64,000 nucleotides of DNA. Source: a bacterium. Its GTDB lineage: Bacteria; Patescibacteriota; Minisyncoccia; UBA6257; 2-01-FULL-56-20. The notes under the pieces were generated by a model that worked only from the letters and a program-made list of their open reading frames with translations, had not been told where the DNA came from and searched no databases. The position numbers and the translations under genes are program-made. The DNA is taken from positions 67,278 through 131,277 of the forward strand of contig DAIDAM010000003.1 of NCBI GenBank assembly GCA_027310625.1. Reading direction: 5' to 3'. Of this stretch, positions 4,376 through 41,971 are shown piece by piece. The first letter of the stretch is position 1; every line of letters begins with the position of its first letter.

Positions 4376-4552
4376 GCCAATGTTGTTAAAATTTATGAGC
4401 CCAATGCGAAGTAAATTTTACCACAACATTGAGCACCGAGCACATAAATTAATCATGAATATTCATAGACAGAAGGTTAATTTATGTGCTCGGTATAATA
4501 AGATTTGCTAATAAAAATACTGCGCTTTCAGCTTGAATTTTTAAATCAAATC

Positions 4553-13471: not shown

Positions 13472-13489
13472 GCGTGTTTCGCCCGCGAG

Positions 13490-13660
13490 GGCAAGGTGGT
13501 TATACCGCAGACCGAGCGGTAATCAAAATTGAGCACCCCGCACATTCGCTGCACATCGTCTGATTTGAAATGCATGGCGTAGCGAAGCGGTTCGCCTGCG
13601 GCTTTGGTTTGATTTGTATTCATGAAGTTTGACATAAATGTGCGGGGTCCAAGATATTTG
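13490..13660. repeat. palindromic intergenic element with GCACC(C)CGCACAT…ATGTGCGGGGT termini; variant of the GCACCGAGCACATAAAA family
   Basis: terminal inverted repeats. Confidence 0.5.
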
Positions 13661-13670
13661 CAACGAAAAA

Positions 13671-14147
13671 TCATTCGTCTTGCGACTTTGATTTTTCGGC
13701 AAAATCTAGGACTCTCCCGCCGGCTTTCTCTATTTTTCCTCTCGCCGACCCGGAAACTTTTATTCCTTTTATTGAAACGGGTATGTCTATTTTAACGCTG
13801 TCGCCGAGTATTTTTACATCGCCGCGGTAGTCAGCGGGCAAAATACCCACTTCCTTCAGGAAAACTTTATCAACTTCCACGGCTTTCTTTTCTTTTGAAA
13901 AAACTTTGAGTTTTTCCGCAAGTTCCGAAATGCCGACTATGAAAGGTTTTTCCGAAACGGGTCTGTTTTTGTAGCCGCGCCTTTTGGGAAGACGGAGAAT
14001 CAAATCCCTCACCGCCGGCCTGATTCTGCGCCCGGCTCTTGATTTCTGACCCTTAGTACCGCGACCCGAAGTCGTGCCGCGCTTTCCCCCGCGTCCTATC
14101 CTTCTTTTTAATTTTTCGCCCCTGCGGGCTATGTGGTGAAGCTGCAT
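13671..14147 (-). CDS. rplO: 50S ribosomal protein L15
   Basis: L15 signature; operon position. Confidence 0.93.
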   Translation of the reverse strand: MQLHHIARRGEKLKRRIGRGGKRGTTSGRGTKGQKSRAGRRIRPAVRDLILRLPKRRGYKNRPVSEKPFIVGISELAEKLKVFSKEKKAVEVDKVFLKEVGILPADYRGDVKILGDSVKIDIPVSIKGIKVSGSARGKIEKAGGRVLDFAEKSKSQDE

Positions 14148-14160
14148 ATATTTCTGGTTA

Positions 14161-14640
14161 CTAGTTGCTGGTTTCTGGTTTCTCCGATTTCAACTTTTTC
14201 AGCGCCTCCATTGCAGCAAGGGCGTTGGTAAGTTTGTTCGGTGTCCGGCCGAGACATTTCGCGGTCGCGTCTTTTATTCCAGCCAAAGCAAGCACGGAAC
14301 GCACCGCGCCGCCGGCTTTCAGCCCATGTCCCGCCGCAGCCGGTTTTATTAAAACCCTCGCCGCGCTGTATTTCGCGTAAACTTCGTGGCGAATCGTTCT
14401 GTTATCCTTCAAGTTAAGAGGGAGAATTTTTTTCTTGGCGGCGGACTTTGCTTTGTCCACGGCGTTTTGAACGTCAAGACCCTTCGCAACGCCGACGCCG
14501 ACTCTTCCTTTTTCGTCTCCGACGACAACAGTCGCTCTGAAGCGGAAACGTTTTCCGCCCGCAACGACGCGCGTAACGCGGCGGAGGTCAAGAACTTTCT
14601 CCTTAAATTCCTCTTTTTTGATGTATCTTTTTTCTCTCAT
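14161..14640 (-). CDS. rpsE: 30S ribosomal protein S5; adjacent to rplO with no L30 gene between
   Basis: S5 signature. Confidence 0.93.
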   Translation of the reverse strand: MREKRYIKKEEFKEKVLDLRRVTRVVAGGKRFRFRATVVVGDEKGRVGVGVAKGLDVQNAVDKAKSAAKKKILPLNLKDNRTIRHEVYAKYSAARVLIKPAAAGHGLKAGGAVRSVLALAGIKDATAKCLGRTPNKLTNALAAMEALKKLKSEKPETSN

Positions 14641-14752
14641 GTTTTTGTACTCATCAGTATAAATCAGTTTTAATCCGCATTAATCAGCGTTATGGAACTT
14701 TGAAACGCCGATATATGCTGATTTTGGCTGATCAATGCTGATTTATATCGGT
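14641..14752. repeat. intergenic palindromic element, ATCAGC/GCTGAT family
   Basis: ATCAGC-rich arm followed by GCTGAT-rich arm. Confidence 0.6.
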
Positions 14753-15112
14753 TCATATTTTTAATCCTTCTTTCCTTGATCCTTCAGCGACCGCTTTCAC
14801 TCTTCCGTGATATTTGTACGCGCCGCGGTCAAAAACGGCTTTTTTTATTCCCGACGCCAAGGCCTTTTTCGCAAGTTCAACGCCGATTGCTTCCGAACAT
14901 CCGACTTTTCCCCCGCTCACGGATTTTTTGGAGCCGAGACTTGAAACGCTCACCAAAGTCCTGCCTTTCTCGTCGTCAATAAGCTGGGCGTAAATGTTCC
15001 TGTTGCTTCTGAACACCGAAAGTCGCGGTTTTTCGGCGGTCCCGAAAATTTTCGCCCGCGCGCGCACACCGCGCCTGCTTCTTATTTCATTTAGCTTTTT
15101 TCTCTTTTGCAT
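14753..15112 (-). CDS. rplR: 50S ribosomal protein L18
   Basis: L18 signature. Confidence 0.93.
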   Translation of the reverse strand: MQKRKKLNEIRSRRGVRARAKIFGTAEKPRLSVFRSNRNIYAQLIDDEKGRTLVSVSSLGSKKSVSGGKVGCSEAIGVELAKKALASGIKKAVFDRGAYKYHGRVKAVAEGSRKEGLKI

Positions 15113-15125
15113 TTTTGTTCCGCGT

Positions 15126-15674
15126 TTAAGCGGCAGCGGTGGCGGCGACTTTCTTGCCCGCCTTCCTTCTTATCACCTCGCCTTGATACTTTATTCCTTT
15201 GCCTTTGTACGGCTCCGGTTTCTTGAGATGTCTTATTTTTGCAGCTGTTTCGCCAACGAGATGTTTATTCACGCCGGAAATGGTTACAATGTTTTTTTCC
15301 ACGGCGATAGATATCCCTTCCGGAATCTCAAACTTGACGGGCTTAACATAGCCGAGCGAAAGCATCAAATTTTTCCCTTCAATATTCGCGCGGTAGCCGA
15401 TTCCTTCTATTTCAAGCTTTTTGGAAAATCCCGACGAAACTCCTTCGGCGGCATTTTTCACTAAAGACCACATCGTTCCCGAATTCGCCTTTGCCTGCCT
15501 GATATTCTTGGAAAACGAAATTTTCGCGGAATTGCCCTCAACTTCCACGTTAACGAAAGGAAGAATCTTCACTTTGATTTCCCCCTTTGGTCCTTTGAAA
15601 GCCAAAATTCCGCCTTCTTCGCCTACGGCAACGCCTGCTGGAAACTTTACCGGTTTTTTTGCTAAACGGGACAT
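15126..15674 (-). CDS. rplF: 50S ribosomal protein L6
   Basis: L6 signature. Confidence 0.93.
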   Translation of the reverse strand: MSRLAKKPVKFPAGVAVGEEGGILAFKGPKGEIKVKILPFVNVEVEGNSAKISFSKNIRQAKANSGTMWSLVKNAAEGVSSGFSKKLEIEGIGYRANIEGKNLMLSLGYVKPVKFEIPEGISIAVEKNIVTISGVNKHLVGETAAKIRHLKKPEPYKGKGIKYQGEVIRRKAGKKVAATAAA

Positions 15675-15833
15675 AAATTTGATACTAATCTACAAATCTA
15701 TACGAATACTACTAATGTCGCTAGGGCTCGATAATACAAATATGCGAATGAATTTCATTAGTACATTTGTATTCCTGCGCCAGAGCGCGATTCGTATCAT
15801 TAGCACGCATTAGTATATTAGCATTACGCTGAT

Positions 15834-16214
15834 TTACCATATTTCAAACAGATACTCTCCGCCGACTCTTTTCTTGCGGGCATCGCCGTCGCTCAAAATG
15901 CCTTCTGTCGTTGAAATCACGCCGGTTCCGTATCCCTGTCTGACGCGTCTCACTTTGTCTTTTCTCAGATATACATGCCTGCTTGGTCTGCTGATTATCT
16001 TAAAACCGCTGATTGACGGAGAACTGTTTTTGTAACTCAGTTTTATCTCAATGAATTTTTTATTTCCGCTGGTTTTTTTCTGAACGTCCTTCAAATAGCC
16101 GCGTTCCGCAAGCAGCTTCGCGACATTGTAATCAAAATTGGAAAAAGGAACGACAAGCGTGTCCTTTTTGGCAAGGGCCGCATTTCTTATTTTTGCTAAG
16201 AGATTGTAGTACAT
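15834..16214 (-). CDS. rpsH: 30S ribosomal protein S8
   Basis: S8 signature. Confidence 0.93.
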   Translation of the reverse strand: MYYNLLAKIRNAALAKKDTLVVPFSNFDYNVAKLLAERGYLKDVQKKTSGNKKFIEIKLSYKNSSPSISGFKIISRPSRHVYLRKDKVRRVRQGYGTGVISTTEGILSDGDARKKRVGGEYLFEIW

Positions 16215-16261
16215 GCCAATTTTATTTGAGAAAACAAGTTTATTTTATAAGCGCAGTTTGA

Positions 16262-16440
16262 GCAAGCATAAAATTGAGCACCGAGCACATAAAACCAACG
16301 TCCGCCCACCATAGCTGGTGCTTTCTGTTGTCGCAACTTTCCGTTTTTTTTACTTCCATCATTTTCGTTTTATGTGCTCGGTAAGGTTTGTCATCCAATC
16401 CGCCGGAGCACATAATGCGTTATGTGCTCGGCTCTTGGGA
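16262..16440. repeat. MITE-like element with GCACCGAGCACATAAAA…TTTTATGTGCTCGGT terminal inverted repeats, plus an extra partial inverted repeat
   Basis: terminal inverted repeats shared with 4419-4500, 19985-20110, 21987-22125. Confidence 0.6.
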
Positions 16441-16447
16441 CAAGCCC

Positions 16448-16633
16448 TTACCACGATGCTTTCTTCACGCCCGGTATCTCGCCGCGGCTGGCCATCTCTC
16501 TGAAGCAAATTCTGCAAAGACCGAAAGCTCTGAGATATCCTCTTTTCCGCCCGCACCTAAAACAGCGCCGAACCGCCCTCGTAGAAAATTTAGGGGTTTT
16601 CTTGCTGCGTGCTATTACTGAAGTTTTTGCCAT
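16448..16633 (-). CDS. rpsN: 30S ribosomal protein S14, Zn-binding type Z
   Basis: 61 aa, CxxC…CxxC. Confidence 0.9.
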
Positions 16634-16694
16634 GGAATTTGTAAATTCTAAATCTCAAATTAGAAATTCGAAACAATTGTAATCTGTTATTTGT

Positions 16695-17243
16695 TTAAGA
16701 TTTCGGATTTCGTGCTTCGGATTTACCTTTTAACGGAACGCCGAGTCGGCGATATTCCTTAATTGCTTTCTCTTTATTTTTTCTTTTAGGAACGATATTT
16801 ATGCCGAGCGGAAAAACCACCGGCGATTCCTCCGGATTTATTTCCGGAAACACCATTTGCTCCTGAAATCCTATGTTGAGCGTACCAACGTCATCTATAA
16901 GATTGGGGTCAATGCCTCTGAAATCGCGGACTCTGGGCAACACTATTGTAATCAAGCGTTCAAAAAAATCAACCATTTTTCTGCGGCGCAAAGTGACCTT
17001 CATGCCGACAATCTGGCCTTCTCTTATCTTGAACCCGGAAATGGACTTTTTCGCCTTTCTCGTCTGGGGCATCTGCCCGGCTATCAAAGAGATGTCTCTC
17101 GCTATTTGCTTGAGCGCTTTCTCTTCAAAATTCGGCTGCTGACTCAGGCGTCCGATACCGGCGTTGACGACTATTTTCTCCAAGAATTTGGATATTTCTT
17201 CCTGGCGGGCTGTTTTCGATTTTTTTATCGCTGCTTTGGTCAT
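16695..17243 (-). CDS. rplE: 50S ribosomal protein L5; the ORF track extends to a TTG at 17270, and ATG at 17243 is the likelier start
   Basis: L5 signature. Confidence 0.92.
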   Translation of the reverse strand: MTKAAIKKSKTARQEEISKFLEKIVVNAGIGRLSQQPNFEEKALKQIARDISLIAGQMPQTRKAKKSISGFKIREGQIVGMKVTLRRRKMVDFFERLITIVLPRVRDFRGIDPNLIDDVGTLNIGFQEQMVFPEINPEESPVVFPLGINIVPKRKNKEKAIKEYRRLGVPLKGKSEARNPKS

Positions 17244-17312
17244 GTTTTTGTGACGCGTGTCATGTGTCAAGTGTCAGGATTTTCCCTTCTTGATGCCTGA
17301 TACTTGATACAT

Positions 17313-17630
17313 TTATATTCTTGCGCTGCACTTTTTGCAGTACCTTATTTTTTCTTTTACGCCGCCGGCGCTTTCAATGCGGAAGCCGACACGAACCGCC
17401 CTTTTGCAATTCGGACAAACGAGCATCGCCTTTGAGGCCGAGAACGGCCTCGGAACAAGAACCGTTTCCCCTTTCTGACCCTGCTGTTTGGGGCGAACGC
17501 GCTTCTTGTAAAGGTTAATTCCTTCAACGGCGATCATTGAGTCCCCGCTTAAAACGCGTAGAACCTTGCCGCTTTTGCCGCGGTCCTTGCCGCTCATTAT
17601 TTTCACTTGGTCTCCTTTCTTGATTTTCAT
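17313..17630 (-). CDS. rplX: 50S ribosomal protein L24 with a C-terminal CPNC…CKKC zinc-ribbon extension
   Basis: KOW motif plus C-terminal Cys4. Confidence 0.9.
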   Translation of the reverse strand: MKIKKGDQVKIMSGKDRGKSGKVLRVLSGDSMIAVEGINLYKKRVRPKQQGQKGETVLVPRPFSASKAMLVCPNCKRAVRVGFRIESAGGVKEKIRYCKKCSARI

Positions 17631-17635
17631 CTTTT

Positions 17636-17735
17636 TATTATCGCACGAATTTACGAATCTTTACGAACATACGAATTTACAGTAAGTAAAATTTAATCTA
17701 TTCGTAAGTTCGTAATTTATTCGCTTATTCGTGCG
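17636..17735. repeat. intergenic palindromic element, ACGAATTTACGAA…TTCGTAAGTTCGT family
   Basis: long imperfect inverted repeat. Confidence 0.6.
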
Positions 17736-17739
17736 ATGC

Positions 17740-18108
17740 TCAGACGATTTCTTCCGCCATGGTCATTATTTTTTCAAAACCCATATTTTTAAGTTCACGG
17801 GGCATCGGACCGAAAATTCTCGTCGCTATCGGCTCTTTCTTGGCGTCAACAATCACGGCGGCATTCTCGTCAAAACGCAGGTAGGAACCGTCGGTCCTTC
17901 TGTACGGCTTCCTGCTTCTAACCAAAACTGCTTTCACTATATCCTTCTTTTTAACGCCTTTTCTCGGCTCGGCTTCCTGAACCGAAGCGATAAAAACGTC
18001 GCCGAGATTCGCGTATCTCCGCCTCGTTCCGCCTAAAATCCTGAAACACCTTATCCTTTTTGCGCCGCTATTGTCGGCGACTTTCAGTATTGAACGTTCT
18101 TGAATCAT
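17740..18108 (-). CDS. rplN: 50S ribosomal protein L14
   Basis: L14 signature. Confidence 0.93.
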   Translation of the reverse strand: MIQERSILKVADNSGAKRIRCFRILGGTRRRYANLGDVFIASVQEAEPRKGVKKKDIVKAVLVRSRKPYRRTDGSYLRFDENAAVIVDAKKEPIATRIFGPMPRELKNMGFEKIMTMAEEIV

Positions 18109-18109
18109 G

Positions 18110-18223
18110 GTTTCTTTAATTCAACACTTCGTTTTTTATCACAAGTACCAATAAGTTTCTACCAGTATCAATTAGTTTCGGAAGGATATTTGTAGAAACT
18201 TGCTTCGCGAAACTAATTGATAC
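18110..18223. repeat. intergenic palindromic element, GTTTCTACCAGTATCAATTAGTTTC…TTGCTTCGCGA family
   Basis: inverted repeats; shared core with 24906-25026 and 43985-44063. Confidence 0.6.
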
Positions 18224-18454
18224 TTATTGTCTCGCAATGATTACCCATCTTTTATCTTTCGACAATGGTCTTGTCTCTTCAATAATTACCCTGTCACCCG
18301 TTCGATATTCGTTCTTCTCATCGTGCGCCTTGAATTTTGAAGTTGACTTGAAATATTTCAGGTATTTTCTGTGTTTCTTAAGACGCGTAACGGCTACGAC
18401 GCGCGTTTTTTGCATCTTGTCCGAAACGACCATACCCTTTAATCTCCTTTTCAT
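18224..18454 (-). CDS. rpsQ: 30S ribosomal protein S17
   Basis: S17 signature. Confidence 0.92.
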
Positions 18455-18465
18455 TTTTTTATTGG

Positions 18466-18684
18466 TTACTTTTGTTTCTCGTTTATAAAAGTCAAAGCTC
18501 TCGCTATGTCCTTTTTGAGCGCTTTGATATCTTTCACGTTTTTCACCTTGCCTGCAGCCAAATCAAATTTCATCGCTCTCAATTTTTCGTCCGCATCGCT
18601 TACAAATTTTTTCAGCTCCGCGACCGGCTTCGTTTTAAGTTCGATTATTTCTTTTCTTTTCATTGTTTTGTGTTTTATCCGCAT
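18466..18684 (-). CDS. rpmC: 50S ribosomal protein L29
   Basis: L29 signature. Confidence 0.9.
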
Positions 18685-18765
18685 TAATCAGTTTAAATCA
18701 GCATCTGTCAGCGTTCAGGGCTCTACAAAAGCAATCGCCGCTGATTTATGCCGATTTTTGCGGAT
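18685..18765. repeat. intergenic palindromic element, ATCAGC/GCTGAT family
   Basis: ttaatcagtttaaatcagcatctgtcagcg … cgctgatttatgccgat. Confidence 0.6.
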
Positions 18766-19185
18766 TTATGCCGATGTTTTCATAACAATTGTGCTCTTGA
18801 AAGGAAGTTTGTGCGAAGCCCTGCGCAACGCTTCCTTTGCGTCTTCGCGGCTGATGCCGTCAACCTCAAAAATTATTCTTCCCGCTCTTACGGGAAAAAC
18901 ATAATGGTCAACGCTGCCCTTTCCGCCGCCCATTGTCGTTTCCGGAGGCCGCTGCGTTATCGGCTTGTCGGGGAAAACCCGTATCCAAAGACGGCCCTGA
19001 CGCTTGAGGAAGTGCGTTATTGCGCGGCGCGCGGCTTCTATCTGCCTCGAAGTGAGGCGCGCCGGCTCCGTCGCCTTAAGCCCATATTCTCCGTAGTTCA
19101 GCTCGAGGCCTCTCGTTTCCTTAAGTCGCCCTTTGGAGCGGCCCTTTTGCCATTTGCGATGTTTGACTTTTTTCGGTATCAACAT
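18766..19185 (-). CDS. rplP: 50S ribosomal protein L16
   Basis: L16 signature. Confidence 0.93.
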
Positions 19186-19195
19186 TTTTGATGTA

Positions 19196-19278
19196 TCGCG
19201 CGAATTTACGAATTTTTACGAACATACGAATTTACGGTGAGCATAATAGAAGTTATTCGTAAGTTCGTAATTCATTCG
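19196..19278. repeat. intergenic palindromic element, ACGAATTT family
   Basis: inverted repeat nearly identical to 17636-17735. Confidence 0.6.
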
Positions 19279-19279
19279 C

Positions 19280-19963
19280 TTATTCGTGCGATTTTATTCT
19301 TTTAAACACTTCCCCTTTGTATATCCAGACCTTGATTCCTATCGTCCCGTAAGTCGTAAAAGCAGTGGCTTGGCCGTAATCAATGTCGGCGCGGAGATTT
19401 TGAAGAGGCAGGGCTCCTCTTTTGAGGGACTCTTCTCTTGCTATTTCGGCTCCGTTTAATCTTCCTGACAAAGTTATTTTGACGCCCTTCACTTCTTTAT
19501 TTTGCGCAACCTGCTCCAGATATTTTTTCATTGCTCTTCTGAAAGGAAAACGCTTTTCCAGATCCCAGGCGATTTGCTGGGCAACATAAGGGGCGGCAAT
19601 TTCGGATTTTTTCAACTCCTCCACATTAACACTCAGGCTAACACGGTTTTTAACTTTTCTTTCTTTTCTAATCGTTTCCTCAAGTTCCTTTGTAAAGTCC
19701 TCTATCCCTTTTCCGCCGCGCCCGATTATAAGGCCCGGCCTTGCGGCTTTTATCACGACTTTGAGATTGTTCGTTGTACGCTCTATTTCAATTGACGCAA
19801 TCCCCGCCAACCCGAATTTTTTTCTGATGAGTTTTCTTATAATCTCATCTTCGGCAAGATACTTCGCATACGAACGCCCCCCTTTGCCGTGCAAAAACCA
19901 GCGGACCGGCCAGTCCTTTATTATGCCTATGCGAAGCGATTGTGGATTTATTTTCTGTCCCAT
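19280..19963 (-). CDS. rpsC: 30S ribosomal protein S3; the upstream 22 codons of the ORF lie in a MITE and are probably not translated
   Basis: S3 KH/C-terminal domains; start MGQKINP. Confidence 0.92.
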   Translation of the reverse strand: MGQKINPQSLRIGIIKDWPVRWFLHGKGGRSYAKYLAEDEIIRKLIRKKFGLAGIASIEIERTTNNLKVVIKAARPGLIIGRGGKGIEDFTKELEETIRKERKVKNRVSLSVNVEELKKSEIAAPYVAQQIAWDLEKRFPFRRAMKKYLEQVAQNKEVKGVKITLSGRLNGAEIAREESLKRGALPLQNLRADIDYGQATAFTTYGTIGIKVWIYKGEVFKRIKSHE

Positions 19964-19984
19964 GCTAGTTTTTCTTAATGAACG

Positions 19985-20110
19985 AAGTGAATTTAGAAAC
20001 AACTTGCACCGAGCACATAAAATTATCAACTGAATGATAAAGCGGTTTTACCGCTCGGCTGCAATTCTTTGTTTTTGCTGATTTCATGTTTGTTATTTTA
20101 TGTGCTCGGT
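19985..20110. repeat. MITE-like element (~125 bp) with GCACCGAGCACATAAAAT terminal inverted repeats; ~90% identical to 21987-22125
   Basis: two near-identical copies with terminal inverted repeats. Confidence 0.7.
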
Positions 20111-20145
20111 TAAGAAATTGTAATTCGCCTTGCTCATAACAATTT

Positions 20146-20697
20146 CTAAACCGATTTCCTCCTGAAAATCCTCTTGAAGAATCCGGGCTGTTTGGTGACA
20201 ATGTGTTCCTGTTTTTCCGTTTCCAGCTGCTGCTTTTTCTCTTTCTTCGGCCTTTCCTGAAGTTCTTTTTTAACTTTCTTTTTTACTTCAATTTTGAAGC
20301 GTCCGGATTTCAGTCCCGGTTTCTCCGCGAGAACGAGCGTGACGTGGCTCATTTTTTTCTGTATCGGGGTAGCCATTCCTCTCGCACGGGGCAATATTCT
20401 CTTAAGCATCGGTCCTTTGTCAACGCGGATGTTCTCAATGTAAAGATTTTCGGCGTTCATTTTTTTGTTGCGCACCGCGCCGGCAACCGCCGAACGGAGA
20501 AGTTTCAGAATCGGTTTTGCGGCTCTACGTCCCTGAACAACGAGTTGCGCCTCGGCTTCGTTCACCGAAAGCCCTTTTATTATTCCTGCAATCGCTCTCG
20601 TCTTTCTCGGGGCAATGCGAAGATAGTTAAGCCGCGCGATTTCCTTTTTGGAAGAAACGGGCGCGTTCATTCTTTTGTCGGTTGCTGTTTCCTGCAT
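20146..20697 (-). CDS. rplV: 50S ribosomal protein L22 with a lysine-rich C-terminal extension
   Basis: L22 signature. Confidence 0.92.
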   Translation of the reverse strand: MQETATDKRMNAPVSSKKEIARLNYLRIAPRKTRAIAGIIKGLSVNEAEAQLVVQGRRAAKPILKLLRSAVAGAVRNKKMNAENLYIENIRVDKGPMLKRILPRARGMATPIQKKMSHVTLVLAEKPGLKSGRFKIEVKKKVKKELQERPKKEKKQQLETEKQEHIVTKQPGFFKRIFRRKSV

Positions 20698-20705
20698 GTT
20701 TTCTA

Positions 20706-21059
20706 TTATGCTGTTTTCTTTGTCTCCGCAGGCGCTGCCGGTTGAACAGCGGTTTCGGCTTTTTGCTCAAGCTCCCTTTGTATTCTCCCTCCGTGCTTCA
20801 CGAATTTCCTCGTGGGGGCGAACTCGCCGAGGCGGTATCCAACCATGTCTTCGCTGACTTTCACTTCCACAAAATTCTTTCCGTTGTGCACCGCAAACGT
20901 ATATCCGACCATTTCCGGAGAAATCTCCGAAGAGCGCGACCACGTTTTAATCGGCGTTCCCTCGCCGGGTTTCCCGCGCGATATCTTCTTCAATATGTCA
21001 GGCGCCACATAGGGCGGTTTTTTTGATGATCTGGACATCTCTTTTGCTTTTATCGGCAT
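20706..21059 (-). CDS. rpsS: 30S ribosomal protein S19
   Basis: S19 signature. Confidence 0.92.
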
Positions 21060-21142
21060 AAATCAGCTATCATCCGCATCTATCAGCGTAGTTAAGGTTG
21101 AACGCTGATTTATGCTGATTCTGCCGATAGACGCTGATGTAT
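21060..21142. repeat. intergenic palindromic element, ATCAGC/GCTGAT family
   Basis: inverted ATCAGC…GCTGAT arms. Confidence 0.6.
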
Positions 21143-21967: not shown

Positions 21968-21986
21968 GCTAGTTTTTCTTAATGAG

Positions 21987-22125
21987 CGTATGCGAATTTA
22001 GAAACAACTTGCACCGAGCACATAAAATTACCGACTGAATGATGAAGTGGTTTTGCTGCTCGATTGCAATTTTCTGTTTTTGCTGATTTCATGATTGTTA
22101 TTTTATGTGCTCGGTAGATATTGCA
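21987..22125. repeat. MITE-like element, second near-identical copy of the GCACCGAGCACATAAAAT element
   Basis: ~90% identity to 19985-20110. Confidence 0.7.
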
Positions 22126-22141
22126 CATCTAAATTTTACGT

Positions 22142-22414
22142 TTAGGTAATATCTATCTTTTGCCCTTTTTTCAGCGTTACAACCGTTTTCTTGTAACCTT
22201 CTTTCGCGCCCGTCTTTCCGCGAAAAATTTTAGTCCTCGGCTTGTTTGTAATCGTTGCAACTTTCAAAACATCAACTCCATAAAGTTTCTTTATGTGTTT
22301 TTTTATTTCGTTTTTGGTCGCGTCCGGCTGGACAATAAAAACATATTTTCCCTCCTTGCTCAAGTCGGTTGCCTTCTCGGTGACATGCGGTTTTTTGATA
22401 ATAAATTTATTCAT
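22142..22414 (-). CDS. rplW: 50S ribosomal protein L23
   Basis: L23 signature. Confidence 0.92.
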   Translation of the reverse strand: MNKFIIKKPHVTEKATDLSKEGKYVFIVQPDATKNEIKKHIKKLYGVDVLKVATITNKPRTKIFRGKTGAKEGYKKTVVTLKKGQKIDIT

Positions 22415-22480
22415 CTCGAATACTTGTTCCCGAACGGCTTTCGCGAATATTCGCGAATCAATTCGAGATTAATTTGTGAT

Positions 22481-23128
22481 TTACTTTATTCTGTAATGTT
22501 TTTCTATTGTCGGTATAGCCTTTTGGTCAATGAAAACGTTTTTATGTCTCATTATTTCGTAAACATTGAGAGATTCAGGATTCAGAACTTCAGTTTTCTG
22601 AAGATTGGAAGAAGCTCTCGAAATTTTTTTGTTTCCCGAGTTTGGGACAAAAAGAACATCGTATTTTTTGGAATTCTTTTTCATCTCCGTAAGATTTCTC
22701 AAAAGTCCTGCAAGCACTTTTGTTTTCGGCGCTTCTATTTCAAGCGTGTCAAAAAATCTCATTTCTCCGTCCTTAAGTTTCTTTGAAAGAACGCTGAAGA
22801 GAGCTGTCCTTTTCATTTTTTTGTTTATTTTCTGCGAATAATTTCTCTCTTTTGTCGGCCCATGCGCCTTCCCGCCTCCTTTCCAAAGCGGAGAACGGAT
22901 GGAACCGTGCCGCGCGCGCCCGGTTCCTTTTTGTCTCCACGGCTTTCTCCCTCCGCCCCGAACTTCGCCGCGGCTCTTCGCGTGCGCCCAAGGTATCCTT
23001 TTGTTCGCAAGATAAGCATTGACCACCTGCGAAACGAGCGCTTCTCTCCAAGGCGCGCCGAAAACCGCGTCAGGCAAATCGATTTCTCCAACCTTCTCGT
23101 TTTTTAAATTAAATAATTCTTTTTTCAT
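22481..23128 (-). CDS. rplD: 50S ribosomal protein L4
   Basis: L4 signature. Confidence 0.93.
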   Translation of the reverse strand: MKKELFNLKNEKVGEIDLPDAVFGAPWREALVSQVVNAYLANKRIPWAHAKSRGEVRGGGRKPWRQKGTGRARHGSIRSPLWKGGGKAHGPTKERNYSQKINKKMKRTALFSVLSKKLKDGEMRFFDTLEIEAPKTKVLAGLLRNLTEMKKNSKKYDVLFVPNSGNKKISRASSNLQKTEVLNPESLNVYEIMRHKNVFIDQKAIPTIEKHYRIK

Positions 23129-23257
23129 CTAACTTTAAATTCTAAATACGAAATTCGAAATTCTAAACAATATCTAAATTCTAAATTTCAAACGGGTTTG
23201 TAATTTGTGATTTGTTGTTTAGGATTTGTTTCAAATTTAGTGCTTCGTGCTTCGGAT
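23129..23257. repeat. intergenic palindromic element, AAATTCTAAAT…ATTTAGAATTT family; also at 16634-16694 and 63113-63233
   Basis: inverted AAATTCTAAA/TTTAGAATTT arms. Confidence 0.6.
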
Positions 23258-23821
23258 TTATATTTTAGATATCTGTAAAAGTCCTCCGCGCGCGCCGGGA
23301 ACCGCGCCTTTAATCATCAAGATGTTTTTATCCGCGTCCACGCCGGCGATTTTCAGATTTTTTACAGTCACTCTCTCGCCACCCATGCGTCCCGCCATTT
23401 TTCTTCCCGGAAAAACTTTCTGCGGCGCCGTGGGACCGATTGAGCCCGGTGCGCGCCAGCGATTTTTCTGCCCGTGCGTTTTCGGTCCGCCGGCGAACCC
23501 GTGTCTCTTGACTACTCCCTGAAACCCTCGCCCCTTGGAAACACCGATTACCTTCACCATGTCGCCTTCTTTGAAAACCGAAATGTCAATGACATCGCCG
23601 ACTTTGAGGTTTTCCTTGTCACTGGTCACTGGTCGCTGGTCGCTCAATCGGAACTCGCGCCGTTTCTTCCCGTCAGTGATTTGAACTGCTTCATATCCGT
23701 CTTTTTCCTTTGTTCGTAGCAAAGCGACTTTATTTTTGGAAACTTCAACGAGCGTCACAGGAGTGACCTTGCCGTCTTTCCAAACCTGGCTCATGTTCAG
23801 TTTTCTGCCTAAAATAAACAT
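23258..23821 (-). CDS. rplC: 50S ribosomal protein L3, with an in-frame heptamer-repeat insertion (…SDQRPVTSDKE…)
   Basis: L3 signature; CTGGTCA/CTGGTCG tract at 23616-23650. Confidence 0.93.
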   Translation of the reverse strand: MFILGRKLNMSQVWKDGKVTPVTLVEVSKNKVALLRTKEKDGYEAVQITDGKKRREFRLSDQRPVTSDKENLKVGDVIDISVFKEGDMVKVIGVSKGRGFQGVVKRHGFAGGPKTHGQKNRWRAPGSIGPTAPQKVFPGRKMAGRMGGERVTVKNLKIAGVDADKNILMIKGAVPGARGGLLQISKI

Positions 23822-23900
23822 CTTTTTTATCGCTCGAATAAGCGAATATTACGAATTTACGAATTCGTATGTTCGTAAAAATTCGTAAATTCGCGCGATA
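23822..23900. repeat. intergenic palindromic element, ACGAATTT family
   Basis: cgaataagcgaatattacgaatttacgaattcgtatgttcgtaaaaattcgtaaattcg. Confidence 0.6.
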
Positions 23901-24163
23901 CCTAACAAAAACGCCGCCAAGGCATAGCCCCGCGGCCATATCCTTGTGGAATCCGCCCTGGGCGGACCATTAAAGAGACGGACAAAGTGTATATTAAACA
24001 AAGCAAGGTTGTCAACCAGGCAGTAGAAATGCGATTTGGATTAAAAAACTCAATCGCCGCAGGCGATTTTGGTCGCATTTTCGTTACCTGATCAATCGCA
24101 ACAAAAAAACCCGCGGTCAGGTTGACCCGGGTGGGCAGTAGGTCTGCCCGGTCCTTGCTGGAT

Positions 24164-24472
24164 TCAGCTGGCACGTTGCTGGCGAAGTTTCTCCGATGCT
24201 TCCATCAGCCCTTTCTTTATCTTTCGGCGCTCGGCGGCGACGCGGGCTTTCTCGCTAGCGATGTGGGCGAGAAGTCCGTCTATGGGCATACGCCACGCCC
24301 AAAGGTTATATTTTTCACGGAAAGCCGCTTCGATGGCGTCATGGTTCGCGACAATCTCCGACGCGTTTACAAGTCTCACCAAAACGTACAAAGCTAAATC
24401 TTCTCCGGGAGCATTCCCGATCGTCCTGACGACATCCACGATCGCCTCGTGGAAAGGCTTCGGTCCTGTCAT
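24164..24472 (-). CDS. hypothetical protein (102 aa) in a high-GC patch inserted between rpsJ and rplC
   Basis: ORF in ~58% GC segment; interrupts the conserved rpsJ-rplC adjacency. Confidence 0.45.
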   Translation of the reverse strand: MTGPKPFHEAIVDVVRTIGNAPGEDLALYVLVRLVNASEIVANHDAIEAAFREKYNLWAWRMPIDGLLAHIASEKARVAAERRKIKKGLMEASEKLRQQRAS

Positions 24473-24547
24473 GTTCTTTCTCCTATTCGGTTAGTAATTA
24501 GCACATAGAAATCCAAACACAAAATTGGACTACGTGCAATAGCAACC

Positions 24548-24573
24548 AAAAACCGCCTCGAGGCGGTTTTTGG
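24548..24573. terminator. bidirectional rho-independent terminator-like hairpin aaaaaccgcctcgaggcggttttt directly 3' of rpsJ
   Basis: perfect 8-bp GC stem flanked by A/T runs. Confidence 0.65.
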
Positions 24574-24575
24574 TT

Positions 24576-24905
24576 TCAAGCCATCTTAATTTCAACATCC
24601 ACCCCTGCCGGCAAATTCAGATTGGAAAGCGATTCGATTATTTTTTGACTGGGGTTGGTGATGTCTATCAGGCGTTTGTGGATGCGGAGTTCAAACTGTT
24701 CGCGGGAATCCTTGTCAACGAAAGTGGAGCGGTTGACGGTGTATCTTTTTATTTCCGTCGGCAAAGGAATCGGGCCGATGATTTTCGCGTCGTTTCTTTC
24801 CGCCGCCTCGATTATCTGCTTTGCGGAATTGTCTATAAGCTTGTGGTCGTACGCCTTCAAGCGCAGGCGCAGTTTTTGCGGCAGTTCGGTTTCCTTCTTG
24901 GCCAT
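24576..24905 (-). CDS. rpsJ: 30S ribosomal protein S10
   Basis: S10 signature. Confidence 0.93.
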
Positions 24906-25026
24906 ACCTTTTATTGATTCACACTAGATTTCTCACAATAAGTATCTACTAGTTTCTATTAGTATCAATTAGTTTCAGTGTGATACTTGTAGAAATTTGC
25001 TTCGCGATACTGATTGAAACTAATTG
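24906..25026. repeat. intergenic palindromic element, GTTTCTA…ATTAGTTTC/TTGCTTCGCGATACTGATTG family
   Basis: inverted repeats; shared core TTGCTTCGCGA. Confidence 0.6.
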
Positions 25027-26226
25027 TTACTTGATTATCTTGGTAACCACTCCGGCTCCCACCGTTTTGCCTCCTTCACGGATGGCGAACCTCTGCTTTT
25101 CTTCAAGAGCGACGGGTGAAATAAGTTTCACGCTGACGTTGACGGTGTCTCCCGGCATAACCATCTCCGTTCCCTGCGGCAAAGCGACGTCACCCGTAAC
25201 ATCCGTCGTTCTGATATAAAATTGCGGTTTGTAACCGGTGAAGAACGGCGTATGTCTTCCGCCTTCCTCCTTGGAAAGCACGTAGACCTCCGCTTCAAAG
25301 TCCGTGTGAGGAGTAACGCTCCCCGGTTTTGCGACAACCTGTCCCCTTTCAACGTCCTCTTTCTTAAGACCGCGGAGGAGAACTCCGATGTTGTCGCCAG
25401 CAAGACCCTCGTCAAGAATTTTATTGAACATTTCAATTCCGGTGACGACGGTTTTCTGCGTCGGCTTCAAGCCGATTATCTCAACTTCTTCGTTGACTTT
25501 CACTTTCCCGCGCTCCGCCCTGCCGGTAACAACCGTGCCGCGCCCTTCTATGGAGAAAACATCTTCAACGGGCATAAGAAAAGGTTTATCAAGCTCTCTC
25601 ACCGGCTCCGGAATGTAATCGTCGAGCGCTTTGACGAGGTCGAGAACCGGCTTGGCGTCCGGGTCGTCGGCTGATTTCACGTTGAGCGCTTTCAAAGCCG
25701 AGCCGCGGATGACCGGGGTGTTGTCGCCGTCAAAATTGTATTTCTTCAAAAGTTCGCGCACTTCCGACTCCACAAGGTCAATAAGTTCCTTGTCGTCCAC
25801 CATATCGCATTTGTTGAGAAACACGACGATTCTCGGAACGCCGACTTGGTATGCAAGAAGAATGTGCTCCCGCGTCTGGGGCATCGGGCCGTCGGTGGCG
25901 GCGACGACAAGAATCGCGCCGTCCATCTGCGCCGCGCCGGTAATCATGTTCTTGATGTAGTCCGCGTGACCGGGCGCGTCAATGTGCGCGTAGTGCCTTT
26001 TGTCCGATTCGTATTCCGAGTGGTGAAGAGCAATGGTTATGCCGCGCGCTTTTTCCTCCGGCGCGTTGTCAATCTGATCAACGCCTTCCTCCTTTTTCGC
26101 AAGCCCCTTCATGAAAAGGACGTGCGTCATCGCCGCGGTCAAAGTCGTCTTGCCGTGGTCAACGTGACCGATTGTTCCGACGTTTACGTGCGGCTTGCCT
26201 CTTACGAATTTTTCTTTTTCAGCCAT
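25027..26226 (-). CDS. tuf: elongation factor Tu
   Basis: [19 protein letters not shown] GTPase motifs. Confidence 0.97.
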
Positions 26227-26401
26227 TTTTTACTTACTAGACATTAGTCATCAGACATCAGTTAACAGAAGTTTTTGCAATTTTCCGTATTCCTGATTTC
26301 TGATTACTGATTACTGATTTCTGTTTATTTTTACGACCTGTTTTTAAACGGTTCGATAATTCTACTCCTGAACCATACTTTGTCAAGGAGATCTGTGGAT
26401 A
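26227..26401. repeat. intergenic element rich in CATCAG/CTGATT repeats
   Basis: acatcagacatcagttaacag … ctgatttctgattactgattactgatttctg. Confidence 0.55.
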
Positions 26402-28528
26402 TCACTTCTTTTTGCCCTCGATAATCAGCTGCGCCACGTTTTGCGGCGCTTGCTCATATCTATCAAACTCCATATTGAATGAACCCCTGCCCTGCGTCAG
26501 CGAGCGGAGCGAAGTCGCATAGCCGAACATTTCCGAAAGCGGAACTTTGGCGTCTATAATTTTCACGTTTGTCCTGTCGCCTATCGTTTCTATCTTTCCT
26601 CTCCTTGAGTTTATATCTCCCGTGACTTCGCCGAGGAAGTTTTGCGGAATTATCACTTGCACTTTCATTATCGGTTCGAGAATCACCGGTTTCGCGCGCT
26701 TCGCCGCCTCCTGAAAAGCGATTGAGCCGGCGATTTTGAAAGCCGCTTCCGAAGAGTCAACTTCGTGAAAAGAACCGTCGTAGAGGGCGACTTCCGCGTC
26801 AACCATCGGATAATGCGCAAGCACTCCTTTATCAAGCGCCTCTCTCACGCCTTTCTCAACGGCGGGAATGAACTCGTTCGGGATTATCCCTCCCCTTATT
26901 TCGTTCTCAAAAACGAATCCCTTTCCTCTTTCAAGCGGCTTCACGCGCAGCCATACGTGACCGTATTGCCCGCGTCCGCCCGATTGTCTGATGTATTTTC
27001 CTTCCGCCTCCGCTTCGCCGGTTATCGTTTCCTTGTAAGCGACCTGCGGACGCCCGACGTTCGCTTCCACGCTGAATTCTCTTTTCATTCTGTCAACGAT
27101 TATTTCAAGGTGAAGCTCGCCCATTCCGGAAATAATCGTTTCGCCGGTTTCGGGGTCGCCGGCAACGCGGAAAGTCGGGTCTTCGTCGGCGAGCCGGCGA
27201 AGCGCGATGCCCATTTTTTCCTGGTCGGCTTTCGTCTTCGGCTCAATTCTTATGCCGATGACCGGCTCGGGGAAAACAATCTTTTCAAGAACAACCGGGG
27301 AGTCGGGACTGCAAAGCGTGTCGCCGGTGCCGGTGTTTTTGAGACCGACTATCGCGGCTATCTCGCCCGCGTAAACCTCTTCCACTTCTTCCCGCTGGTT
27401 GGCGTGCATCCGCACAATTCTTCCGACGCGCTCCTGCTCGCCTTTCGTCGCGTTCAGAACGTAAGAACCGCGTTTCAGAACGCCCGCGTAATTTCTGAAA
27501 TAAGTCAAACTGCCCACGTAAGGGTCGTTGGCGATTTTGAAAGCAAGCGCCGTAAACGGTTCGGCGTCGTCGGGTTTTCTTGAAATTTCCTCTCCTGTTT
27601 TCGGATTACTTCCCTTAACCGGAGGCAAATCGAGCGGCGAAGGAAGATAATCAACGACCGCGTCCAGAACCAGCTGCACTCCTTTGTTTTTGAGCGCCGA
27701 GCCCGTGAACACCGGAACAATTTTGTTCGCTATCACGGCCTTTCGAAGCGCGCGCCGCAATTCATCGAGCGTGATTTCTTTTTCGGCGAGATATTTTTCC
27801 ATTACGGCATTGTCGGAGTCCGCAATCGCTTCGATAAGTTCGTGACGATACTTTTTAACATCCGCTTTCATCTCTTCGGGAACGGGGATTTCAACGATGC
27901 GTTCCCCTTTATCGCCGTGGAATTCAAAAGCTTTTTCCTGCAGTAAATCAACGACGCCGCGGAAAGTCGATTCAATTCCGAGCGGCAACTGCACGCGATA
28001 AGCGTGCGGCGTAAGGCGTTCCCTTATTGAGGCAAAGCTGCGTTCAAAGCTCGCGCCCATGCGGTCAAGCTTGTTGATGAAGCAAATTCGCGGAACATTG
28101 TATTCGTCGGCGTAGCGCCAGTTTGTCTCGGACTGCGGCTCGACGCCGGCGACGCCGTCAAAAACGACGACCGCGCCGTCAAGAACGCGGAGCGAGCGCT
28201 TGACCTCCACGGTGAAATCAATGTGTCCGGGAGTGTCAATGAGATTTATCCTGTGCTCGTATTCTTTCCTGGTGCCTGGTGCCTGGTTCCTGGTCACTGC
28301 ATAGGTCGGCGTCCAGAAGGCCGTCGTCGCCGCGGCCGTAATCGTTATGCCGCGCTCTCTTTCCTGCTCCATCCAGTCCATCACCGTGTCGCCCTCGTGA
28401 ACCTCGCCGATTTTATACGAAACGCCGGTGTAAAAAAGCACGCGCTCGGAAACGGTAGTTTTCCCAGCATCTATATGAGCAATAATTCCTATATTACGAG
28501 TTTTTTCGATCGGATAAGTTCGCGGCAT
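26402..28528 (-). CDS. fusA: elongation factor G, with a short in-frame heptamer-repeat insertion near the N-terminus ([12 protein letters not shown])
   Basis: EF-G GTPase and domains II-V; CTGGTGC x4 tract at 28268-28300. Confidence 0.96.
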
Positions 28529-29003
28529 TGATTTATCGCACGAATTTACGAATCTTTACGAACATACGAATTATTATTAACAATTCTCTTAAAAATAACA
28601 CCTTTAGACGTAAAATTTGCTAGGATGGCGAGTGGCAAATTGCTTGCTTTGAGATAGTTAAAAATCTGCTCCGCGTTATGACGAGAAAACGCCACACCCT
28701 TTTTAATCTCAATTATTACTTTTTCTTCAACTAAAAAATCGCATCTTTGTCTGCCAACTGCTTTACCATGAAACATAACGGGCAACAAAACTTCTCGCCT
28801 AAATTTTAATCCTGCATCCTCGAATGCTAATGCCACTGCGCGTTGATAATAATTTTCCGAGTAACCAGAGCCGAGTGCATTGCTGACATCGAATAGCGTT
28901 CCAACAATTTTGTAGCTCAGCTCGGGCTCAATAATGTCGCTCCTTCGCAACTTTCTCTCGCTCATAATGATTCGTAAGTTCGTAATATTCGCTTATTCGC
29001 GCG
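28529..29003. repeat. ACGAATTT-family palindromic element whose two arms (28529-28560 and 28966-29003) are separated by an inserted GxxExxY gene
   Basis: left arm atcgcacgaatttacgaatctttacgaacatacgaatt; right arm attcgtaagttcgtaatattcgcttattcgcgcgat. Confidence 0.6.
28546..28965 (-). CDS. GxxExxY family protein (PD-(D/E)xK-like; the family is associated with 23S rRNA intervening sequences)
   Basis: [21 protein letters not shown]…[13 protein letters not shown] motif pattern of the GxxExxY family. Confidence 0.75.
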
Positions 29004-29004
29004 A

Positions 29005-29472
29005 TCAGCGGGCAAAGTGCGCGAACGCCCTGTTGGCTTCCGCCTGCCGGTGCATATCCAGCTTCTTTTTCACCGCGTCTCCTTCATTTTTGGCGGCGGC
29101 AATTATTTCAGCGGCAAGTTTTTCATGCATCGGTTTTCCTTTTTTCGAGCGCGCGGCGTTGACAATCCAGCGCACACCGAGGATGAAACGGCGTTCGGGA
29201 CGCACCTCGCGCGGAATCTGGTAGTTCGCGCCTCCGACACGCTTTGAAAAAACTTCCAGCATCGGCGATGCGTTTGTAAGCGCCTGCTCAAAAACGCTGA
29301 CTGGCTCTTTTTTTGTTTCTTTTTTTATTTTCTCAAAAGCGCCGTAAACCGCCTTTCGCGCCGCGCTTCTCTTCCCTTCCCTCATCACATAATTTATCAG
29401 GCGCCCCACATCAACTCGCCCGTAAAGCGAATCCGGCTGATGATGTTTTTTGTAAACTCGTTTCTTTCTCAT
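29005..29472 (-). CDS. rpsG: 30S ribosomal protein S7
   Basis: S7 signature. Confidence 0.93.
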   Translation of the reverse strand: MRKKRVYKKHHQPDSLYGRVDVGRLINYVMREGKRSAARKAVYGAFEKIKKETKKEPVSVFEQALTNASPMLEVFSKRVGGANYQIPREVRPERRFILGVRWIVNAARSKKGKPMHEKLAAEIIAAAKNEGDAVKKKLDMHRQAEANRAFAHFAR

Positions 29473-29550
29473 TTAAGTATCGCACGAATTTACGAATTTT
29501 TACGAACATACGAATTCGTAAGTTCGTAATATTCGCTTATTCGAGCGATT
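29473..29550. repeat. intergenic palindromic element, ACGAATTT family
   Basis: cgcacgaatttacgaatttttacgaacatacgaattcgtaagttcgtaatattcgcttattcgagcg. Confidence 0.6.
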
Positions 29551-41952: not shown

Positions 41953-41971
41953 TTTAGTTTCTAAAAGTTTC

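Follow-up and report, generated by a model that had tools for sequence, protein, structure and literature searches.

The ribosomal protein (r-protein) operon str-S10-spc of a streamlined genome from the candidate phyla radiation (CPR) raises a simple question: what are the long palindromic sequences that separate most of its genes? The operon lies in a 64,000-nucleotide (nt) window of GenBank contig DAIDAM010000003.1 (positions 67,278 to 131,277; Patescibacteriota), and coordinates below refer to this window unless another locus is named. In a preliminary description, every intergenic spacer of the operon was said to be occupied by a palindromic element, or one like a miniature inverted-repeat transposable element (MITE), from at least five repeat families (here A–E), which were thought to be either selfish or sites of RNase III-type processing or attenuation. 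Our analysis suggests that the spacers probably hold selfish palindromic cassettes, part of a population spread across the genome and resembling the intervening sequences (IVSs) of rRNA genes, together with derivatives of such cassettes that lack an open reading frame (ORF).

The operon occupies 12200-29985 on the minus strand. Its genes were identified from ORF translations, and by tblastn with the same gene set in relatives, in the order S12, S7, [GxxExxY], EF-G, EF-Tu, S10, [orf102], L3, L4, L23, L2, S19, L22, S3, L16, L29, S17, L14, L24, L5, S14, S8, L6, L18, S5, L15 and SecY. The bracketed entries are two extra ORFs, one of 139 amino acids (aa) between S7 and EF-G and one of 102 aa after S10; no L30 gene was found within the operon. 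Twenty of the 26 junctions are 61-342 nt long and each of these holds an inverted-repeat element, two more (39 and 17 nt) correspond to the two arms of a single element that encloses an inserted ORF, and four are tight and empty (S19>L22, 8 nt; L29>S17, 11 nt; L6>L18, 13 nt; S5>L15, 13 nt). The statement that every spacer is occupied thus holds for all long spacers and fails at the four junctions of 8-13 nt. Spacer DNA sums to ~2.8 kb out of 17.8 kb, and in each long spacer the main hairpin lies 0-12 nt from the preceding stop codon and 5-19 nt from the start codon that follows. The leader between hairpin and start codon is A-rich, as in AATAAAAAG-ATG and ACATCAAAA-ATG, and between 13000 and 30000 Shine-Dalgarno-like sequences are absent before most r-protein genes.

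All five families proved to be real and in place, with 2-5 copies each in the 64 kb that are 78-97% identical (Table 1), and four further spacers contain single-copy hairpins. The terminal inverted repeats (TIRs) are invariant, with ATCGC...GCGAT in family B and ACCGAGCACAT...ATGTGCTCGGT in family D, of which the two long copies, previously put at about 90% identity, are 91% identical over 122 nt. Three ORFs suspected of being artificially extended by the elements indeed are. The true start of S3 lies at 19963 and its TTG-initiated ORF reads into a D element, S11 (62672-63172) gains 21 false codons from an E hairpin, and the TrpR/YerC-like ORF at 30284-30856 runs into palindromes at 30745-30954. 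An artefact of a single assembly is excluded by Logan assemblies from two other sequencing runs, which match the window at 100% over 19996-22023 (2,028 nt) and 28543-29514 (972 nt), hairpins included. The 2,028-nt contig terminates inside family D copies, as expected of repeats that break short-read assembly.

Three features go beyond the preliminary description: the presence of elements outside intergenic DNA, the periodicity of their arms, and their ties to genes for GxxExxY and four-helix-bundle proteins. In most elements, each arm consists of 3-5 copies of a 6-8-nt core at 7-11-nt spacing, mirrored in the other arm, and the predicted fold of these periodic elements is a series of short helices interleaved with small internal loops. 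The core recurs every 10 nt in family A (ATCAGC/ATCGGC) and every 8-9 nt in family B (CGAAT, within ACGAAT units), and the units are 7 nt long in family E and in the EF-G>EF-Tu hairpin. Family A, family E, the EF-G>EF-Tu hairpin and several non-operon elements are more periodic than any of their shuffles; in family B, with its variable spacing, the signal is less strong. Families C and D differ in having plain 16-23-bp stems, accompanied in D by a 65-71-nt loop and a shared tail. The operon elements are 40-170 nt long, and their ends differ by family.

Palindromy is pronounced throughout the window, where a gapless scan returned 165 raw matches as against 17-25 in shuffled sequences. Compared with 100 dinucleotide shuffles, 13 of the 20 long spacers fold at z ≤ -3.5, whereas three are weak as sense RNA (z ~-1.2) and yet belong to repeat families. 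The hairpins show no preference for the sense RNA, with a summed minimum free energy (MFE) of -611 for the sense and -657 for the antisense strand, and with 39 G-U pairs in the sense and 61 in the antisense orientation. Across six aligned copies of family B, the outer 16 stem pairs are invariant and a compensatory change was seen in only one of 31 pairs.

A comparison with L163, an ENA contig from a second species, separates conservation of sequence from conservation of structure. At its S7/EF-G junction, too, stands a GxxExxY gene, 75% identical and with family B arms, and family B hairpins occupy S12>S7 and EF-Tu>S10 as well. Four-fold degenerate sites are 41-49% identical between the two (near saturation) and the family B arms 83-93%, and the B termini ATCGC-N-CGAATAAGCGAAT ... 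ATTCGTAAATTCG-N-GCGATA are invariant, mismatched positions included. Considering the invariant outer pairs, the near absence of compensatory change and the arm identity relative to that of four-fold sites, family B is conserved as sequence and not as structure alone. Copies of family B are 0.89-0.97 identical within a genome and 0.79-0.90 between genomes, with 0.89 for the orthologous S12>S7 pair. They cluster by genome and not by locus, which points to ongoing intragenomic spread or gene conversion.

The ORF between S7 and EF-G encodes a GxxExxY protein (TIGR04256, E 1.9e-30; PF13366), modelled with a predicted local distance difference test (pLDDT) score of 89.9 as a PD-(D/E)XK fold in which D76, E86 and K88 are invariant; structural comparison returned generic nucleases and nothing more specific. 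Four ORF-less family B hairpins have termini in common with this cassette, and family B is therefore present within the operon in both ORF-less and ORF-carrying forms. Outside the operon, two elements with mirrored arms enclose ORFs for four-helix-bundle proteins. Complementary flanking arms were detected at z ≥ 3.4 in 11 of 13 GxxExxY or four-helix-bundle loci, drawn from the window and from unrelated contigs, and the core motif follows the type of ORF. ACGAAT accompanies S7-type GxxExxY in the window and in L163, L167, L175 and L177, and ACGAAT/ATTCGT arrays flank distant GxxExxY homologues (50-57% identical) that lie beside epimerase, ABC-transporter or glycosyltransferase genes. In the 4HB_b clade, CTTGGAA/ACTTAGA units occur in the window and at L182 (60%-identical homologue), and the related unit AACTCAGA occurs at L184, which holds a 59%-identical homologue of the second four-helix-bundle protein. 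No GxxExxY relatives were found in viral contigs, and tblastn detected neither GxxExxY nor four-helix-bundle genes in 80 ribosomal operons (L002-L081). We know of no function assigned to either protein family.

The families also recur elsewhere in the window, both in divergent intergenic DNA and in frame within coding genes. In-frame hairpins are present in mnmA, which encodes tRNA 2-thiouridylase, and in tsaD. A GT2-like ORF has three in-frame insertions, of which two are GxxExxY elements, both with arms of their own; it remains open through both GxxExxY domains (aa ~95-200 and 370-484), with the catalytic D..ExK intact. Its third insertion is an ORF-less hairpin whose termini, CATAATCC...GGATTATG, are those of the first cassette's arms. 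Among GT2-type GxxExxY homologues in other genomes, 4 of 32 are fused to a GTP_EFTU domain (GTP_EFTU + PF13366). At the one locus inspected of these four fusion proteins (L179 3001-5238; ENA ERZ28563803 scaffold_2986), lepA is split in its G domain after 'RMIYH' by arms of GCGGACA units and a GxxExxY ORF, which is in frame with the LepA N-terminus; a single TAA then follows, and LepA resumes in the same frame.

Two of these genes show additional irregularities. Further low-complexity stretches in mnmA resemble in-frame element inserts, including an ATCAGC-type one near the C-terminus. The tsaD coding sequence (48942-50172, plus strand) is spread over three reading frames and contains two low-complexity inserts of 7-nt tandem units, each causing a +2 frame shift: the first (~49185-49243) reads AATCCGG three times and then AAATTTC three times, and the second (~49440-49500) reads AAATCAG three times and has a partner arm. 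One additional 7-nt unit would restore the frame at both inserts, and perfect palindromes of 16 bp (49148-49182) and 14 bp (49402-49433) adjoin them. These frame shifts could represent a pseudogene, a collapsed assembly repeat, phase variation or bypass.

Regarding related operons, the closest S3 proteins among 185,579 species genomes (GTDB) are 72% identical and belong to metagenome-assembled genomes (MAGs) of Candidatus Paceibacterota and Liptonbacteria; the best S3 identity in JGI metagenomes is 67%, and exact protein matches were limited to short Logan contigs of the same strain. The comparison of spacers between related genomes suggested earlier shows that these operons differ from one another. 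Those at L004, L005 and L010 are compact, and those at L002, L003 and L007 have hairpins of their own sequence, at partly different junctions.

The interpretation of the spacers as selfish elements is drawn from several of these observations: the multi-copy families outside the operon, the in-frame copies in mnmA, tsaD and the GT2-like ORF, and the units of ORF plus arms; the core motif that tracks the ORF clade across organisms, and the termini common to ORF-less and ORF-carrying copies; the conservation of arm sequence far above neutral expectation, the clustering by genome and the differences between relatives; and the lack of a sense-RNA preference, together with an anatomy that is the same as in the 23S rRNA IVS of Coxiella. 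Other observations weigh against it. No flanking direct repeats of the kind left by target-site duplication were found at five B or five D copies, and no recognised transposase is tied to families A-E. The nuclease activity and motif binding of the GxxExxY protein are predictions from its conserved D/E/K residues and modelled fold. Two species whose synonymous sites are saturated have the S12>S7 hairpin and the S7>EF-G cassette at identical junctions, a pattern also compatible with a role for the host or with highly stable inheritance. Moreover, seven of eight family B copies in these two genomes are aligned in the same way to transcription, a bias that could stem from RNA-level selection or from replication-linked insertion. 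Lastly, the nearest genomes are just 67-72% identical in S3, too far for a strain-level comparison of presence and absence.

Full-size elements carry in their loop an ORF for a GxxExxY nuclease or a four-helix-bundle protein, and the hairpins of the operon are the ORF-less form. If the elements are selfish, ORF-less copies would arise as deletion derivatives or be mobilised in trans. Copy number may rise within a genome through transposition, or else through gene conversion and copying set off by the nuclease. Recognition would depend on the core motifs together with the conserved mismatches, most likely through the element-encoded nuclease; recognition by the nuclease of its own arms is, at this point, a tentative part of the scheme. 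The four-helix-bundle protein might likewise recognise the core motifs and in some way drive copying. Elements would persist only where the gene survives, that is, in stop-to-start gaps of co-transcribed operons or in frame within tolerant protein loops. Co-transcribed hairpins would enter the polycistronic mRNA, where RNase III may cut them as it does rRNA IVSs and Correia elements (PMC4990558, PMC2649163, PMC10969869). Processing of the operon mRNA by RNase III is plausible, and such cutting would be a consequence of the presence of the elements and not the reason for it.

The opposite order of cause is conceivable, in which the hairpins are RNA structures beneficial to the host, serving as RNase III or exonuclease-barrier sites that split the r-protein transcript into individually stable segments and adjust protein stoichiometry, with their repeat-family nature being secondary. 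Such a role would explain the strong predicted folds in 13 of 20 spacers, the regular placement of the hairpins between stop codon and A-rich leader, the occupation of the same junctions in the window and L163 despite saturated synonymous sites, and the 7:1 orientation bias of family B, and it has precedents in repetitive extragenic palindromic (REP) sequences, Correia elements and rRNA IVSs (PMC10969869, PMC2649163, PMC4990558). We nevertheless consider it unlikely, given that the sense strand, with fewer G-U pairs than the antisense, has no advantage over it in folding, that one B copy is inverted, that members of these families occur also in divergent intergenic regions and in frame in genes, that the CPR operons at L004, L005 and L010 function without hairpins, and that sequence is conserved with almost no covariation. 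There is hardly any prospect that the hairpins are transcription terminators, attenuators or known r-protein autoregulatory leaders, even though they stand between the genes of an operon whose classical regulation is through leader structures. The window shows no excess of terminator-like sites (33 vs 30.5 +/- 6.1), and the family hairpins are followed by A-rich sequence and not by a U-tract, the sole terminator-like exception being at 24544-24575; the attenuator option raised earlier is not borne out. An Rfam scan of the window returned only tRNAs at the gathering threshold, and at a relaxed threshold only spurious sub-threshold matches to microRNA precursors.

A different source of mobility might be sought in the IS200-like Y1 transposase gene at 37877-38578 (PF01797, E 6.8e-9), which resembles the genes of REP-associated tyrosine transposases (RAYTs) but scores 39 bits with NF047646, below the 80-bit cutoff. 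As with RAYT genes, a palindrome (AGGAAGTCGGACTTCCT, at 37839, 38055, 38582, 39185 and 39749) flanks it in inverted copies, and the absence of target-site duplications and the conserved hairpin mismatches are typical of single-strand DNA transposition. On the other hand, this palindrome does not occur in the operon and bears no relation to families A-E, ten or more distinct core motifs would be an unlikely range for a single Y1 enzyme, and the operon hairpins measure 70-140 nt and not 20-40 nt, all of which makes mobilisation of REP-like elements by this enzyme quite improbable. Less probable still is that the periodic cores are binding-site arrays for a host DNA-binding protein with a nucleoid or replication-related role, their palindromy being incidental. 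The 7-11-nt core spacing, about one helical turn in family A, and conservation at the level of sequence instead of covariation would suit such arrays; set against them are the at least ten different core motifs within 64 kb, the covariation of the motif with the element-encoded ORF and not with the host, and the mirroring of every array. We therefore return to the interpretation of the spacers as selfish, IVS-like cassettes and their ORF-less derivatives.

Table 1. Palindromic elements of the operon and of the remainder of the window. Junctions are written as upstream>downstream gene; TIR, terminal inverted repeat.
Feature	Location	Coordinates	Strand	Remarks
Family B hairpin without ORF	S12>S7	29479..29549	-	MFE -33.2, z -8.2; orthologous copy in L163; starts 1 nt past stop codon, stops 6 nt short of start codon
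Family B element with GxxExxY / PD-(D/E)XK ORF in loop	S7>EF-G	28535..29005	-	ORF 28546-28965; complementary arms 28966-29005 and 28535-28577 (z 14); left terminus includes the A of the S7 stop codon
Periodic single-copy hairpin (AATCAGT units, period 7)	EF-G>EF-Tu	26239..26315	-	promoter-like site 26386-26359 upstream
Family C element	EF-Tu>S10	24923..25024	-	107 nt, 78% identical to 18124-18230, same orientation
Family B hairpin, inverted relative to other B copies	upstream of L3	23829..23899	+	96% complementary to 29473-29549; orientation score 71 opposite vs 41 same
Family E element (TTCTAAAT units, period 7)	L3>L4	23141..23256	-	antisense fold -25.4, sense -15.2
Short single-copy palindrome (TCGCGAATATTCGCGA core)	L4>L23	22428..22468	-	
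Family D element	L23>L2	21968..22115	-	91% identical to 19989-20110 copy; TIR hairpin 22013-22115 with 19-bp TIR (22013-22031 / 22097-22115); shared 45-nt tail reaching L2 start
Family A hairpin (ATCAGC/ATCGGC units, period 10)	L2>S19	21052..21138	-	identical in Logan contig L001
Family D element	L22>S3	19964..20110	-	TIR hairpin 20008-20110; source of false 22-codon S3 ORF extension
Family B hairpin	S3>L16	19195..19292	-	left terminus encodes last four S3 codons and stop
Family A hairpin	L16>L29	18677..18765	-	z -5.7
Family C element	S17>L14	18109..18223	-	main hairpin 18165-18223
Family B hairpin	L14>L24	17640..17737	-	z -7.7
Periodic single-copy hairpin (ATCAAG/ATCAGG units, period 7)	L24>L5	17262..17312	-	
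Weak family E remnant	L5>S14	16639..16676	-	z only -1.1
Composite D-type element	S14>S8	16215..16447	-	P1 hairpin (GGGCTT...AAACCTTACC), TIR hairpin 16280-16382 and P3 hairpin (GTGCTCAATTTT...AAAATTGGC)
Long single-copy hairpin (71-nt arms, CTAAT units)	S8>L6	15682..15824	-	
Family A hairpin	L18>S5	14648..14747	-	z -6.3
D-like hairpin (ACCCCGCACAT TIR, then GGTGCTCAATTTT)	L15>secY	13535..13648	-	
Four-helix-bundle '23S rRNA IVS protein' ORF with GAAACT-unit mirrored arms	outside operon	41889..42443	-	ORF 41972-42415; PF05635 E 1.3e-17, TIGR02436; arms z 7.6
Second four-helix-bundle ORF with CTTGGAA-unit mirrored arms	outside operon	44720..45267	-	ORF 44745-45170; PF05635 E 1.2e-32, TIGR02436; arms z 13.8
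GT2-like ORF with three in-frame insertions	outside operon	46617..48495	+	ORF 46386-48944, 852 aa; GxxExxY elements 46617-47088 and 47437-47895; ORF-less hairpin 48396-48495 (aa 671-704)
In-frame hairpin (GCGAAT units)	mnmA (10490-11992)	11305..11367	-	aa 209-230
In-frame hairpin	tsaD (ORF 49288-50172)	49793..49874	+	aa 169-196
Family A copies	outside operon	5866..5965, 60342..60524, 62513..62565		
B-type copies	outside operon	54190..54212, 59894..59979		
Family D copy	outside operon	4435..4494		
Family E copy	outside operon	63119..63234		

The composite element at S14>S8 has counterparts in the Liptonbacteria MAG with 72% S3 identity (L003), where the three-part layout recurs at 2493-2718. 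Three-part spacer elements were noted at L003 2493-2718, 7018-7213 and 7595-7800, sharing with 16215-16447 of the window a P1 hairpin whose ends (GGGCTT...AAACCTTTACC) are conserved and whose stem shows compensatory changes, a long variable hairpin, and the P3 hairpin. This arrangement has no Rfam match and may be a distinct structured element. The S10>L3 region (23822-24575) is also unusual: a 342-nt stretch is highly structured (MFE -126.6) and includes a promoter-like site (24015-23986) ahead of L3, the orphan 102-aa ORF (24164-24472) has no family match, and a terminator-like hairpin (24544-24575) directly follows S10. The S10>L3 gap in relatives is likewise 225-400 nt long. The ribosomal operon of L163 has insertions of other kinds, namely an unassigned 331-aa ORF between EF-G and EF-Tu (8717-9712) and, after S10 and in place of L3, LAGLIDADG-like, HTH and Fic genes (11574-12417).

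Elsewhere in the window, a class I aminoacyl-tRNA synthetase ORF (50865-54176, plus strand; 1,103 aa) contains a complete in-frame histidine-phosphatase domain (PF00300, aa 503-680) between two zinc-knuckle motifs, without flanking hairpin arms and followed by an unassigned ~100-aa segment. At 50214-50855, a 168-aa PaaX_M / Cas2-like ORF (50305-50811) is bracketed by 35-nt inverted repeats, themselves palindromic around GCGATCGC and 91% identical, which are the strongest inverted repeats in the window. The RAYT-like gene and its palindromes (37839-39768) form a separate REP-like system, adjoined by an AbiEii toxin gene (36814-37434).

Operon MITEs, palindromic elements inserted in frame, and rRNA IVSs are all known already, and the elements described here have something in common with each. 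With REP sequences and bacterial interspersed mosaic elements (BIMEs), mobilised by RAYTs, they share extragenic palindromes at gene ends in operons, the lack of target-site duplications and conserved mismatches; they differ in that the operon families are much longer, comprise many unrelated sequences and have ends that vary from family to family, whereas REP palindromes share a conserved 5' tetranucleotide. Homing endonuclease genes offer a possible parallel, as small nuclease genes that sit in conserved housekeeping loci and recur at one site across organisms. Here, among the few loci inspected, two species have the S7/EF-G junction occupied and the lepA fusion was seen at one locus. Unlike homing endonuclease genes, the GxxExxY genes have hairpin arms around them in place of an intron or intein, and ORF-less copies at many non-homologous sites. 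TIGR-Tas arrays were considered and rejected, as they require 36-nt dual-spacer units and a Nop-domain Tas gene, whereas the present hairpins are single and dispersed, with units of 7-11 nt, and the ORFs scanned included no Tas-like gene.

The bacterial MITEs (Correia elements, or CREE, of Neisseria, ERIC, RUP and BOX) are closer, being short, non-autonomous, multi-copy inverted repeats between operon genes that fold in the transcript (PMC2649163, PMC10969869). The elements of the operon are likewise short, non-coding and multi-copy and have TIRs. What stands of the MITE option raised earlier is that copies are multiple, recur outside the operon and in genes, cluster by genome and have ORF-carrying versions; target-site duplications and a parent insertion sequence with a known transposase were not found. 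Unlike MITEs, the whole element is palindromic and not its termini alone, and the ORF-carrying relatives encode a PD-(D/E)XK nuclease, as in the GxxExxY copy with B ends, or a helical-bundle protein. The Rickettsia palindromic elements (RPEs) are alike in their insertion pattern, with palindromic repeats in a reduced genome that occur in frame in unrelated genes as well as between genes (PMC10969869). They belong to another taxon and have other sequences, while the elements in the present genome have periodic arms and in some copies whole ORFs, and occur in the r-protein operon at a density not described for RPEs.

The most extensive parallels are with the 23S rRNA IVSs known in Coxiella, Leptospira and Salmonella, and in CPR rRNA genes (PMC4990558, PMC11270868). 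In Coxiella, the IVS combines a stem of inverted repeats with a four-helix-bundle ORF that has tandem heptamers next to it, and RNase III excises it (PMC4990558); RNase III also cleaves the hairpins of Correia elements (PMC2649163; PMC10969869). Like the IVSs, the elements in the window are closed by a long stem of complementary termini whose loop may hold a small ORF (PMC4990558, PMC11270868). They also share with the IVSs short tandem repeats beside the ORF, the absence of a self-splicing RNA fold, and a sporadic distribution that suggests mobility. In two elements outside the operon, the loop ORF even belongs to the S23p / PF05635 / TIGR02436 family, although the one within the operon is GxxExxY. 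They depart from the IVSs in lying in mRNA spacers and coding sequences and not at helices 25/45 of 23S rRNA (the Rfam scan found no rRNA in the window), in having a second cargo, the GxxExxY nuclease, and in their many ORF-less copies and multi-unit periodic arms. RNase III excision, demonstrated for the Coxiella IVS, is for the present elements a prediction.

The literature searched on CPR palindromic or MITE elements, GxxExxY and TIGR02436 holds no description of the present arrangement. Within that literature, the combination of IVS-type cargo with periodic arms, placed in a CPR genome's mRNA spacers and ORFs, appears to be new, as do the pairing of ORF-carrying and ORF-less forms in one family, the covariation of motif and cargo clade, and an r-protein operon saturated with elements. 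On the selfish reading, a streamlined CPR genome tolerates ~16% selfish spacer DNA in its most conserved operon, in addition to in-frame inserts in housekeeping genes. This has consequences for gene calling, through false ORF extensions and fused or split genes, and for assembly, where short-read contigs break at the repeats. More speculatively, and with less confidence than in the selfish nature of the spacers, rRNA IVSs, ORF-less operon hairpins and in-frame insertions might all belong to one unrecognised mobile class of palindromic cassettes, whose periodic arms would be recognition sites for the cargo protein (a GxxExxY nuclease or a four-helix-bundle protein) and whose nuclease would drive copying into the transcription units of reduced genomes. 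Within this scheme, and bolder still, frame-breaking inserts might be neutralised in the RNA or during translation, by hairpin-guided excision or ribosomal bypass, for which tsaD and the lepA gene at L179, with its single in-frame stop, are candidates. How 23S rRNA IVSs arose and spread has been described as unclear (PMC4990558). Both their cargo genes and their anatomy of stem plus tandem units are present here outside rRNA, ORF-carrying and ORF-less copies of one family are neighbours, and a core motif tracks the cargo clade across organisms, all of which makes the question of IVS origin directly testable.

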